From Escherichia coli (lineage in GTDB: Bacteria > Pseudomonadota > Gammaproteobacteria > Enterobacterales > Enterobacteriaceae), in the NCBI RefSeq assembly GCF_030384885.1, contig NZ_CP128613.1: a stretch of DNA of 64,000 bases; one strand, 5' to 3'. Position numbers and translations under genes: made by a program. Below are positions 49,809 to 54,393 of the stretch, one piece after another (positions within the stretch are counted from its first letter, which is position 1; every line of letters begins with the position of its first letter). The notes under the pieces are model-generated. The model was not told the DNA's origin and ran no database searches. It saw nothing but the letters and a program-made list of their open reading frames with translations.

Positions 49809-51347
49809 TTATTGCAAATCCGCGTCTTCAAAGCTGAAACCGGTGTCTGGCATGATCCAAAAACCGGTCAGGTTTTTACTGTGTGCCGACACCAGTTTTT
49901 CTACCACCAGCGGGATCCACGGCGACTCTTGCCAGATGATATCCTGCACCGCCTTATATAAACGGGTCTTTTCTGCCGGATCATTAGTTTTCAGTGCCTG
50001 AGCCAGGAAGTCATCCACCTGTTTATTGCTGTAAAACGCGGTATTAAACAGCGTCGGTGGCCAGTTCTGCGAGGCAAACAGCGGCGATAGTGCCCAGTCA
50101 GCTTCGCCGGTTGAAGCCGACCAGCCAGTGTAGAACATCCGCACGCCGCTCTCTTTTTGCCCTTTACCTTCAACTTCTGCCGCCCGCTGTCCGGCATCCA
50201 TCGCAGTCACCTGGGCTTTAATCCCGACCTGCGCTAACTGCTGCTGGGTAAATTGCAGCACTTTCTGCGCGGTGCTGTGGTTATGTGACGACCACAGCGT
50301 GGTGCTGAAACCGTTGGGATATCCCGCCTCTTTCAGTAATTCGCGCGCTTTCACTGGATCGTAAGGCCACGGTTTATAACTTTGCGCGTAGGCGATACTC
50401 GGCGGTACCACACCAGTAGCTGGCGTTGCATAGCCCGCGAAGGTTACTTTCACCAGCGCCGGGCGGTTAATGGCGTAATTCAGCGCCTCACGGACCTTCG
50501 GGTTATCGAACGGCTTTTGCGTCACGTTCATACTGATATAACGCTGCATAATTGACGGACTAGCCATCAGCTCGATATTTTTGTTTTTCTCCAGTAGCGC
50601 CGCTTGTTCATAAGGGATGGGAAAAGCAAATTGCGCTTCACCGGTTTGCAGCATTGCCGCACGGGTGTTGTTATCCGCCACCGGACGCCAGGTTATGCTG
50701 TCCAGTTTGGGCAATCCTGGCTGCCAGTACCCCGCGAATTTTTTCACCTTCACAAAATCGGTCTGATTCCAGGTATCCAGTTCATACGGCCCGGTGCCAA
50801 CCGGATGAAAACCAATCTCCTTGCCATATTTTTCCAGCGCTGCCGGTGAAATCATCGCGGTCGCCGGATGGGCAAGAATGTTAATAAACGCGGAGAACGG
50901 CTGTTTGAGGGTAATCTTTACCGTTGTCAGATCGAGCGCTTCCGTTTTCGCAATATTCTTATACAGGTTATAGCGTTTAAGATGATTCGCCGGATCGCTG
51001 GCCCGGTCGAGATTCGCTTTTACCGCCGCTGCGTTAAAGTCGGTGCCATCCTGGAATTTAATTCCTTCCCGCAATTTCACGGTGTAAGTGAGGCCGTCAT
51101 CGGAAACGGTATAACTCTCCGCCAGCACGTTTTTCAGTTTCATCTCTTTATCGAGACCGAACAGCCCCTGGTAAAACGATTTCGCTACGGCCTGAGATAA
51201 CGTGTCATTCGCGTCATATGGATCGAGCGTGGTGAAGTTCGATCCTACCGCCACCACCACATCTTTGGCAGCGAATGCACAAGATGCCATCAACGCTGTC
51301 GCAATGCCCAGCGCCACTAACCCACTACGGTGTACAGCTCTTGCCAT
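49809..51347 (-). CDS. gsiB: Periplasmic glutathione-binding protein GsiB (512 aa)
   Basis: Translation [48 protein letters not shown] from internal ATG; the 601-aa ORF-track extension is rejected. Confidence 0.9.
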
Positions 51348-51366: not shown

Positions 51367-53238
51367 TTATCTACGCATGAATGCGTATTCTGATTGTGGT
51401 TGTGCGACGTAATGCCCCGGCCCGACGCATTGCAACGAGACGACTGCAACCTCTTCGCCACGCAGATGAATATTGCTGGGAAGATCGTCCGACAGCAGTA
51501 CACGCTGCGGTCGTTGTCGGGACGGTTCAGCGACCGGAACTGCCGCCAGTAATTTACGCGTATAAGGATGCTGCGGATTTTCAAAGACCGCGCGCCGTGG
51601 ACCAATTTCAACAATTTGCCCGAGATACATCACCGCCACACGATGACTAATCCGCTCTACAACGGCCATATCGTGGGAGATAAACAGATACGCAATGCCG
51701 AAATCACGCTGGAGATCGAGCAACAAGTTGATAATCTGCCCGCGAATAGATACATCCAGCGCCGAGACGGCTTCGTCGGCAATGATCACTTTTGGATTCA
51801 ATGCCAACGCGCGAGCAATGCAGATGCGCTGTCGCTGGCCGCCGGAAAACTCATGCGGGTAACGCCACGCATGTTCAGGTAACAGACCCACGCGCTCCAG
51901 CAACCACGCAACGCGTGCAGCCGCTTCTTTACCTTGCAATAAACCGTGTACGCGCAACGGTTCGATAATCGAATCACCGATGGTCTGACGTGGGTCCAGC
52001 GAAGCGTAAGGGTCCTGAAAAATAAACTGAATATCGCGACGCAATGCCTGAAGTTTGCCGGGTGAAAGGGTATCGATTCGCTGACCGTTAAAGATAATTT
52101 CGCCGCCCTGCGATTCGACCAGGCGCAGCAACGCCCGCCCGGTAGTGGATTTACCGCTGCCAGACTCACCCACCAGCGATAGCGTTTCGCCAGGCCAGAG
52201 ATCAAAACTGACTTTCTCAACGGCATGCACTTCCCGCGTTACGCGATTCAACAAACCGCTGCGCAAAGGGAAACGGGTAACCAGATTACGCACCCGTAAA
52301 ACAGGTTCGCCATCCACCACCGTTTTCTGCTCGATGGGTGGCTCCTGTTTCGCTGGATGTTCAAGCGATATCAATGGGAAACGTCGTGGATAATCTAACC
52401 CTTTCATCGCACCAAGTTGCGGAACAGCAGCTAACAGCGCACGGGTATAAGGATGTTGCGGTGCATTAAAAATCTGTTCGACGCTACCCGTTTCCACCGC
52501 CTCGCCCTGATACATCACCAGTACCCGATCGGCAATCTCTGCCACCACACCCATATCGTGAGTGATAAAGATAACGCCCATCGACATCTCTTTTTGCAAT
52601 ACTTTGATTAATTGCAGGATCTGCGCCTGAATAGTGACATCCAGCGCGGTGGTTGGCTCATCGGCAATCAGCACCGCCGGGCGGCATGACAGTGCCATCG
52701 CAATCATCACTCGCTGGCGCATCCCGCCAGAGAGTTGATGCGGATAACGTGAAAGAATGGTTTGTGCCTCCGGAATGCGTACCTGATCCAGCATCCGCTT
52801 CGCCTCGACCATTGCTTCTTCACGACTGGCGTTTTGATGCAGACGAATTGATTCGGCAATCTGTTCACCCACGGTAAATACCGGGTTCAGCGATGTCATC
52901 GGCTCCTGAAATATCATCGCCATATCCGCACCGCGCACATGGCGCATTTGTGCAGCGCTCTGTTCGCTAAGTTCAATCACCTCACGACTGCGCCGCCGCA
53001 ACAGCATTTGATCGCACTGCACTAAACCGCCCGCCTGTTCCAACAGGCGCATCAGTGCCAGCGCAGTCACTGACTTACCAGAGCCGGATTCGCCAACAAT
53101 TGCCAGCGTCTCACCGCGTTGCAGGCTAAAAGAGAGATTGCGGACCGCAGCTATTTTCTGCTGCTCCTGCATAAAGGCAATATTCAGATTTTCAACCGCC
53201 AGCACATCACCGGCATCAAGTTCATCACTGTGTGGCAA
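51367..53238 (-). CDS. gsiA: Glutathione ABC transporter ATPase GsiA with two ABC domains (623 aa), TTG start
   Basis: Translation (M)[31 protein letters not shown]...; two Walker A motifs; the codon at the expected start is TTG and gives exactly 623 aa. Confidence 0.85.
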
Positions 53239-54190
53239 CGGTGTCCCCTTTTTCACGGTAGATACCGGTGGTTGGCGTATCGCCTGCGTAGCCCCAGGCG
53301 CGATACATTCCTTCGGTGTTAAACGGTAGCGCGACGTTACCTTCATGGTCGATAGCGATTAAGCCACCGCTACCGCCAAGCGCAGGGAGTTTTTCCATTA
53401 CTACCCGCTCGCAGGCTTCCGCGAGACTTAATCCGCCGTAATCCATTAACGCGGCGATGTCATATGCCGCCAGCGCGCGGATGAAGACTTCGCCCGTGCC
53501 GGTACATGAAACCGCCACACTGGCGTTATTGGCGTAGCATCCGGCGCCCACTAAGGGACTATCGCCAACTCGTCCGGGTAATTTATTGGTCATTCCGCCC
53601 GTGGACGTGGCTGCCGCCAGATTGCCGTTTAAATCCAACGCCACGGCACCCACGGTGCCCATTTTCTGTTTTTCATCCAGTGGCGCACCGCTATGGTCGA
53701 GAACCGTTGCCCCTTCCTCGCGCGCTGCCAGGAGTTGTTCATAACGCAAAGGCGTGGAGAAAATCTCCGGCGAGACGCGCTCCATGCCATGAGCAAATGC
53801 AAAATTTTCTGCCCCTTCGCCAATCATCATCACATGCGGGCTTTGATCCATCACCAGGCGGGCAGCAAGAACCGGATTACGCAGATGACTCACGCCCGCC
53901 ACCGCACCGGCTTTCAGGGTGTTACCATCCATCACACAGGCGTCGAGTTCATGGGTTTCATCTCGCGTAAAGACTGCGCCAATTCCGGCGTTAAACAGTG
54001 GACACTCTTCCAGTAGACGCACCGTTTCCGTCACCACATCCAGCGCACTTTCGCCCGCTTCCAGCATTTTCTGCCCGGTTTCAACAATGGCAGACAACGC
54101 CTCAATGTAGCGTAATTCCTGTTGCAGACTCATCTGCGCGCGGCTAATTGCACCTGCGCCACCATGAATTGCAATGACTGCTTTGCCCAT
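53225..54190 (-). CDS. iaaA: Isoaspartyl peptidase / L-asparaginase IaaA (Ntn hydrolase, 321 aa)
   Basis: Translation [32 protein letters not shown]; 3' end overlaps the gsiA start by 14 nt. Confidence 0.95.
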
Positions 54191-54393
54191 AGTATTCGTC
54201 CATTAAGGGTGGCTCGCCACTTTTGCTATAAATATCAGAATTTTTATGAATTACTCATTCAATTTTTGAATATAGAAAGATGGATATGGCATGTAAAGGC
54301 AGGAGCCAGCGCTACGCCCGAGGTGGCATACAGTCTGTGGCGTTTTTCTGACATAATAGGCAAATTCGATTTTGCCTCCGCAGGAGTGTTTTC

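Follow-up and report, generated by a model that had tools for sequence, protein, structure and literature searches.

In Escherichia coli K-12, gsiA (b0829, formerly yliA; U00096.3) starts at TTG, encodes 623 amino acids and overlaps the 3′ end of iaaA by 14 nt. These features, and the 40-mer spanning the junction, are all the same at the locus described here, and the two GsiA proteins differ by strain-level substitutions only (98% amino-acid identity; for example, N11 in K-12 and D11 here). Initiation sites in K-12 have been mapped by tetracycline-inhibited ribosome profiling (TetRP; Nakahigashi et al. 2016, PMC4909307), and row 8 of Table S2 of that study reports a new initiation site for yliA (gsiA) at TTG, 33 nt 5′ of the 2006 start. 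Read depths in K-12 were 46.3, 140.5 and 70.6 at the TTG versus 0, 0 and 3.0 at the old GTG (PMC4909307). The detected site agrees with the 2014 re-annotation, whereas the 2006 record had GTG (PMC4909307); the coordinates in TetRP Table S3 place that older start at codon 12, a GTG from which the product has 612 aa (PMC4909307). UUG is one of the three canonical start codons, initiates ~3% of E. coli genes and reaches 10–100% of the activity of AUG in reporters. RefSeq gives the same two coding sequences, the same 14-nt overlap and the same 1,872-nt gsiA in strain 2013C-4282 and in K-12 MG1655. The TTG start and the overlap are standard E. coli annotation, already known, and nothing about them is new in kind.

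Here we analysed this junction in a window of 64,000 nt, a single stretch of E. coli DNA. GsiA is very probably translated as a 623-aa protein from the UUG by way of a Shine-Dalgarno (SD) sequence lying inside iaaA, an accessible, SD-dependent start to which the overlap is secondary. The small addition made here is evolutionary: the overlap appears to derive from the loss of a stop codon that gave IaaA eight extra residues.

Identity of the locus and layout of the junction

A 701-nt stretch of the window is 100% identical to E. coli strain 2013C-4282 and was found in 5,425 of 5,426 complete genomes. RefSeq features of this identical strain show the operon context iaaA-gsiA-gsiB and onwards. 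GsiA is assigned to the NCBIfam equivalog NF007613 (1,375 bits versus a cutoff of 1,077), with protein residues 1–623 aligned to profile positions 1–623, and IaaA to the equivalog NF007589 (710 bits versus a cutoff of 567; 1–321 of 321). IaaA also matches E. coli crystal-structure chains. GsiA consists of two fused Opp/Dpp-type nucleotide-binding domains and matches Rv1281c OppD, DppD/F and OppD/F, with the alignment beginning at residue 12; in all solved or profiled homologues, the ABC fold opens at V12. The 11-residue N-terminal extension lies outside this conserved fold, and homology alone would therefore miss its loss. Such a blind spot may be how the GTG start entered annotation. The role of GsiA in glutathione uptake rests on published genetics of yliABCD in K-12, and the operon, which is CysB-dependent, would be expected to be induced in cells limited for sulfur and grown on glutathione.

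Read directly on the minus strand in the iaaA frame, the junction is ...TAC CGT GAA AAA GGG GAC ACC GTT GCC ACA CAG TGA (Table 1). The original prediction had placed the gsiA TTG inside the 3′ end of iaaA, with a 14-nt overlap and a 623-aa product, and both the direct reading and RefSeq bear this out. It had also stated that the open frame reaches 36 codons 5′ of the TTG, as it does in the 659-aa entry of the ORF list, and that there is no ATG at the right position. It is correct that no ATG yields 623 aa, but an in-frame ATG does exist, at the 5′ end of that longer frame. The last eight residues of IaaA, KGDTVATQ, are encoded by the gsiA SD, the spacer and the first four gsiA codons. The 14-nt overlap is unvarying in the six Escherichia and Citrobacter loci compared (L001–L006).

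A consensus scan upstream of iaaA returned one candidate operon promoter (TTTACA-17-TATATT). The candidate is weak, because two matches were obtained in a region where 3.0 are expected by chance.

Table 1 Features of the iaaA–gsiA junction and neighbouring sequence, in window positions
Feature	Position	Strand	Basis
iaaA CDS, isoaspartyl/beta-aspartyl peptidase, 321 aa	53225..54190	-	ORF list, RefSeq, NCBIfam NF007589
iaaA stop TGA	53227..53225	-	direct reading
gsiA CDS, 623 aa, 1872 nt, fused double ABC ATPase of glutathione importer	51367..53238	-	
gsiA start codon TTG	53236..53238	-	in frame of long ORF ending at 51367
iaaA/gsiA overlap, 14 nt; gsiA codons 1-5, iaaA codons 318-321 + stop	53225..53238	-	
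gsiA Shine-Dalgarno AAAGGGGA, 5 nt 5′ of TTG, within iaaA codons 314-316	53244..53251	-	
Lineage-specific iaaA tail, 8 codons, AAA GGG GAC ACC GTT GCC ACA CAG = KGDTVATQ	53228..53251	-	
Rejected start: in-frame ATG, 36 codons (-108) upstream, 659-aa ORF	53344..53346	-	
Rejected start: GTG at codon 12 (+33), 612 aa	53203..53205	-	2006 K-12 record
Rejected start: ATG at codon 23 (+66), 601 aa	53170..53172	-	
Candidate operon promoter 5′ of iaaA, TTTACA-17-TATATT	54269..54297	-	consensus scan only

A strong and open ribosome binding site at the TTG

The sequence AAAGGGGA pairs with the 16S tail at -7.8 kcal/mol and a spacing of 5, the best value among the 175 ATG, GTG and TTG triplets in iaaA and gsiA. 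Anti-SD energies at rival starts are -1.5 kcal/mol (ATG at -108), -2.3 kcal/mol (GTG at +33) and +0.4 kcal/mol (ATG at +66). An equivalent SD, AAGGAG or AGGGGG, is found in relatives. Opening the segment from -15 to +12 at the TTG is predicted to cost 8.0 kcal/mol versus 13.0 ± 4.6 kcal/mol at control positions in the same genes, and 86% of the control positions are harder to open than the gsiA ribosome binding site (RBS). Low opening energy is also predicted in nearly all relatives of the TTG type. A low efficiency of initiation at the gsiA UUG is only a general expectation for this codon; here the SD is good and the site open.

A predicted helix flanks the RBS (z = -2.1; 4/200 shuffles). We considered an RBS-sequestering hairpin and rejected it: the RBS proper is open, and neither Citrobacter nor Escherichia albertii conserves the helix arms. 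We likewise rejected a known cis-regulatory RNA at this junction, as an Rfam search yielded just a chance, sub-threshold snoRNA match.

Published initiation-site data at the TTG

The 40-mer around the TTG is the same in K-12 and in the window, so the site detected by TetRP in K-12 has the same local sequence as the one analysed here. The original prediction had named initiation-site profiling as a way of checking the start, and the published TetRP data from K-12 already support the TTG. Two other data sets gave negative results: in vitro INRI-seq with a synthetic gsiA fragment (-30 to about +120) produced no initiation peak in five of five replicates, and in vivo Ribo-RET produced no peak at the gsiA start. 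These negatives are weak because INRI-seq confirms about 70% and Ribo-RET about 18% of annotated starts. An N-terminal peptide of GsiA is absent from TetRP Table S2, where the column is blank, and from the TRAINSPOTTER entries listed; gsiA is not among the entries in the supplements of Huber 2019. A literature search on the gsiA start codon and on the gsiA–iaaA (ybiK–yliA) pair returned nothing relevant.

The start codon position is conserved across Enterobacterales

We scanned one genome per species and recovered 80 loci, about 70 of which have iaaA directly 5′ of gsiA, and compared the junction in 38 Enterobacterales loci. At the position homologous to the TTG, 8 loci carry TTG, 11 GTG and 9 ATG (28/38 loci), and a conserved P-H-S comes next; in the other 10, indels have shifted the N-terminus and a start codon is found a few codons off. 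Codons 2–8 of gsiA (PHSDELD) are conserved as amino acids, with changes that are synonymous. An in-frame stop lies 15–21 nt 5′ of the gsiA start in Enterobacter and Lelliottia, and no earlier start is therefore possible in these genera.

Counts of codons with synonymous-only and with amino-acid-changing differences in the six Escherichia and Citrobacter loci point to the same boundary. Over the 36 codons preceding the TTG, 0 are synonymous-only and 25 are changing in the gsiA frame, whereas the iaaA frame has 23 and 4. Downstream, over another 36 codons, the gsiA frame has 11 synonymous-only and 15 changing codons, and the control frame has 0 and 31. Judged by these substitution patterns, selective constraint passes at the TTG from the frame of iaaA to that of gsiA.

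Within E. coli, the 40-mer around the TTG is identical in 5,232 of 5,425 complete genomes and carries one or two differences in the remaining 193. Replacement of the TTG by ATG or GTG in that 40-mer context was not found in any complete E. coli genome, and the two most divergent alleles that we retrieved retain the TTG. One allele, from strain 23CRST011, has a CAC-to-CAT change that is silent in gsiA and converts CAG to TAG in iaaA, leaving an IaaA of 320 aa and an overlap of 11 nt. This allele suggests that, within the overlap, it is the gsiA frame and not the IaaA tail that is constrained.

The overlap is probably derived from loss of the iaaA stop codon

In most relatives, iaaA ends in ...I-Y-R-E-TAA, followed by AAGGAG or AGGGGG, and gsiA starts about 9–13 nt past the stop. 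This pattern of TAA before the SD occurs in Enterobacter, Leclercia, Lelliottia, Phytobacter, Siccibacter, Superficieibacter and Pseudocitrobacter. In Escherichia and Citrobacter, the aligned codon (53251..53249 in the window) is AAA, giving YRE-AAA-GGGGA. With the ancestral TAA now AAA, IaaA therefore runs eight codons further, to the next in-frame TGA. Among the best 120 matches, which are saturated by E. coli and Citrobacter, a 321-aa IaaA is the usual form in E. coli and the Citrobacter freundii complex; Salmonella IaaA is presumably 313 aa. TTG starts without the overlap occur in Superficieibacter and Pseudocitrobacter; the TTG therefore predates the overlap and does not depend on it. As read from the aligned junctions, the overlap is apparently a derived, lineage-specific stop loss, a by-product and not a conserved design.

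Alternative starts and translational coupling

Two other start codons come from the longest ORF and from the 2006 record. The ATG at -108 would give a 659-aa product and a 122-nt overlap with iaaA; in its favour, the open frame has no earlier start codon and the codon is an ATG, but we regard it as extremely improbable. The ATG has no SD (-1.5 kcal/mol), is missing in E. albertii and lies in a frame that is closed just 5′ of the gsiA start in Enterobacter and others, and along the 36-codon extension all 25 variable codons change the amino acid in the gsiA frame, with 23 of 27 silent in the iaaA frame. The 612-aa product of the GTG at +33 would remove the overlap altogether. This start coincides with the valine at which the conserved ABC fold opens in all solved and profiled homologues, and the GTG is widespread because that valine is conserved. 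It is nevertheless very improbable as the start: TetRP in K-12 gave 0/0/3 reads there versus 46/140/71 at the TTG, its SD is poor (-2.3 kcal/mol), the codon reads GTA or GTT in L003 and L006, and codons 2–8, which lie 5′ of it, show amino-acid conservation with synonymous changes.

A different proposal accepts the TTG and concerns the ribosomes that reach it. The original prediction inferred tight translational coupling, in which GsiA would be made mainly by ribosomes that have just finished iaaA, through termination and re-initiation by back-scanning 30S or 70S particles held by the SD. Stop and start are indeed separated by 14 nt on a single mRNA, no terminator intervenes, and almost all Enterobacterales keep the stop–start distance between -14 and +19 nt, a pattern suggestive of selection for keeping the two close together. 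A spacing of -14 is, however, outside those favoured for coupling, the enriched spacings being -4, -1 and -8 (review, PMC12548453), and in a reporter series coupling dropped steadily from -4 to none at -25 (PMC12548453). Going by the coordinates, the P site of a ribosome that terminates at the iaaA UGA is 8–10 nt 3′ of the UUG, and such a ribosome would cover the start codon; re-initiation at gsiA would therefore need backward movement. Coupling by RNA unfolding involves an RBS sequestered with the upstream ORF; the gsiA RBS is not so sequestered, and because it is more open than 86% of controls, unfolding by upstream translation is not needed. The SD is also strong enough for de novo initiation. 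The isolated fragment is silent in vitro in INRI-seq, yet the TTG is occupied in vivo in K-12 by TetRP; against this, INRI-seq misses ~30% of annotated starts anyway. Kasugamycin resistance is a feature tied to coupled downstream genes, and in a kasugamycin translatome of noisy microarray values gsiA had an average effect of 0.73 (p = 0.27), whereas iaaA was resistant (>2.0). Finally, the overlap would be the recent product of a stop loss, and in relatives a gap of +10 to +13 suffices. Given the spacing, the open RBS and the lack of a kasugamycin-resistance signature for gsiA, tight coupling as first inferred is not supported, and we consider it unlikely that GsiA is made mainly in this way. 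It is decidedly improbable that the stop loss went further and made GsiA synthesis depend on, and sit below, IaaA translation through SD-anchored backward re-initiation. If it did, ribosomes ending iaaA 11 nt 3′ of the UUG would cover this codon as they terminate, and the contrast between INRI-seq and TetRP would be the first hint of such dependence.

Other candidate products were rejected outright. The ATG at +66 has no SD (+0.4 kcal/mol), occurs in Escherichia only and would remove the first ABC beta-strand, given an alignment that begins at residue 12. An IaaA–GsiA frameshift fusion would need a +1 shift, and the UGA is not preceded by a slippery codon (CAG UGA U); the SD is 14–17 nt from the stop, unlike in prfB. 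An ATG lying out of frame across the iaaA stop (TGATG) begins an ORF of only 13–30 codons, with neither length nor sequence conserved.

Discussion

The reading that we prefer is de novo, SD-dependent initiation of gsiA at the UUG. The AAAGGGGA motif within the last iaaA codons, with its 5-nt spacer, would direct initiation at this codon. The position of the start is probably old, as orthologues put TTG, GTG or ATG at the same codon, and in the ancestor iaaA is likely to have ended in a TAA abutting the SD, about 10–13 nt before the gsiA start. In Escherichia and the C. freundii group, this TAA would have changed to AAA, so that translation of iaaA now continues across the gsiA SD and the first four gsiA codons. 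Most initiation at gsiA probably occurs de novo on the open site, and ribosomes finishing iaaA may add to it at most partly, by re-initiation. On this reading, neither the longest ORF, with its ATG and 659 aa, nor the homology-based GTG start, with 612 aa, is right, and the current 623-aa model is confirmed.

The case matters little outside annotation hygiene. It does caution against taking every gene overlap as designed translational coupling. Should coupling prove true, the iaaA–gsiA pair would lend itself to testing re-initiation at a spacing of -14 with a UUG start.

The closest comparison is with the junctions of Enterobacter, Leclercia, Lelliottia and Superficieibacter, which share with E. 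coli the gene order, the positions of start and SD and the M/V-PHS motif. They differ in having a TAA before the SD, a gap of +9 to +13, a GTG, ATG or TTG start and no overlap. The trpB–trpA and trpE–trpD pairs, with their TGATG junctions, and ATGA pairs resemble iaaA–gsiA in being co-directional, in having the downstream SD inside the upstream ORF and in having the stop near the start. These classical coupled pairs have a spacing of -1 or -4, whereas iaaA–gsiA has a spacing of -14, a UUG start and indirect indicators that do not point to coupling. The coat–lysis junction of MS2 is similar in another respect: the downstream start precedes the upstream stop, and a terminating ribosome must move backwards to reach it. 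The MS2 lysis start is shut by RNA structure and silent without termination of coat translation, whereas the gsiA RBS is predicted to be open and is preceded by a good SD.

Origin and variation of the iaaA-gsiA overlap

In the alignment at codon 314, most other Enterobacterales have a TAA stop where the E. coli iaaA gene carries a lysine codon. The loss of this stop accounts both for the iaaA/gsiA overlap and for the eight extra residues (KGDTVATQ) that IaaA has in the Citrobacter freundii complex as well as in Escherichia. Natural variants of the junction were also observed. The divergent allele of E. coli 23CRST011 (L083, locus 79-89) carries a CAC-to-CAT change that is synonymous in gsiA and ends iaaA one codon sooner, at TAG, giving a 320-aa IaaA and an 11-nt overlap. 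In a metagenome-assembled genome (L050, locus ~2365-2500), gsiA is preceded by just a C-terminal iaaA remnant (residues ~275-316), and the TAA, Shine-Dalgarno (SD) and GTG elements of the junction are whole despite this reduction. Five of the 5426 matching places among complete E. coli genomes lie on plasmid-labelled records, and one complete genome holds two copies of the junction. Two 321-aa IaaA matches labelled Salmonella enterica by NCBI (P0022 and P0024) look Citrobacter-like (89% identity) and could be mislabelled isolates or transfers.

Features at the iaaA-gsiA junction and the downstream gsiB start
Feature	Coordinates	Strand	Remarks
gsiB	49809..51347	minus	Annotated start ATG at 51347
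13-codon ORF from out-of-frame ATG	53184..53225	minus	Classic TGATG: the ATG and the iaaA stop overlap
Long imperfect predicted helix	53189..53298	minus	-39.1 kcal/mol, z = -2.1
iaaA codon 314	53249..53251	minus	AAA; aligned with the TAA iaaA stop of most other Enterobacterales

Translation initiation at gsiA and gsiB

Initiation datasets conflict on the start of K-12 gsiA. Tetracycline ribosome profiling (TetRP; PMC4909307) gives a clear in vivo initiation signal on the TTG equivalent to position 53238, whereas INRI-seq, performed in vitro on an isolated gsiA fragment, gave no signal there in any of five replicates (5/5 negative), and Ribo-RET likewise gave none. The out-of-frame ATG at the iaaA stop opens a short ORF for which neither length (13-30 codons) nor sequence is kept among close relatives, and which therefore probably arises incidentally from the gsiA codons for S-D-E. 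The predicted helix pairs iaaA codons (around ACCACCGGUAUC) with gsiA codons 8-12 (GAUGCCGGUGAU), such that the ribosome-binding site would be looped out between the arms and open inside the loop; neither E. albertii nor Citrobacter conserves these arms. Within the same operon, the annotated gsiB ATG lies 19 nt past the gsiA stop and has a GGAGA SD motif, and the mechanical gsiB ORF overshoots it upstream to a TTG (601 aa). gsiB is another gene of this operon whose longest ORF extends beyond the true start.

Gene order beyond Enterobacterales

iaaA also lies directly upstream of gsiA, at gaps of about 30-130 nt, in loci from Burkholderiales and some Alphaproteobacteria (L041-L082), far outside Enterobacterales, in genera including Achromobacter, Bordetella, Paraburkholderia, Variovorax and Methylobacterium. 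Because adjacency is retained in these lineages, gene order suggests that the peptidase and this transporter have been functionally linked since long ago.
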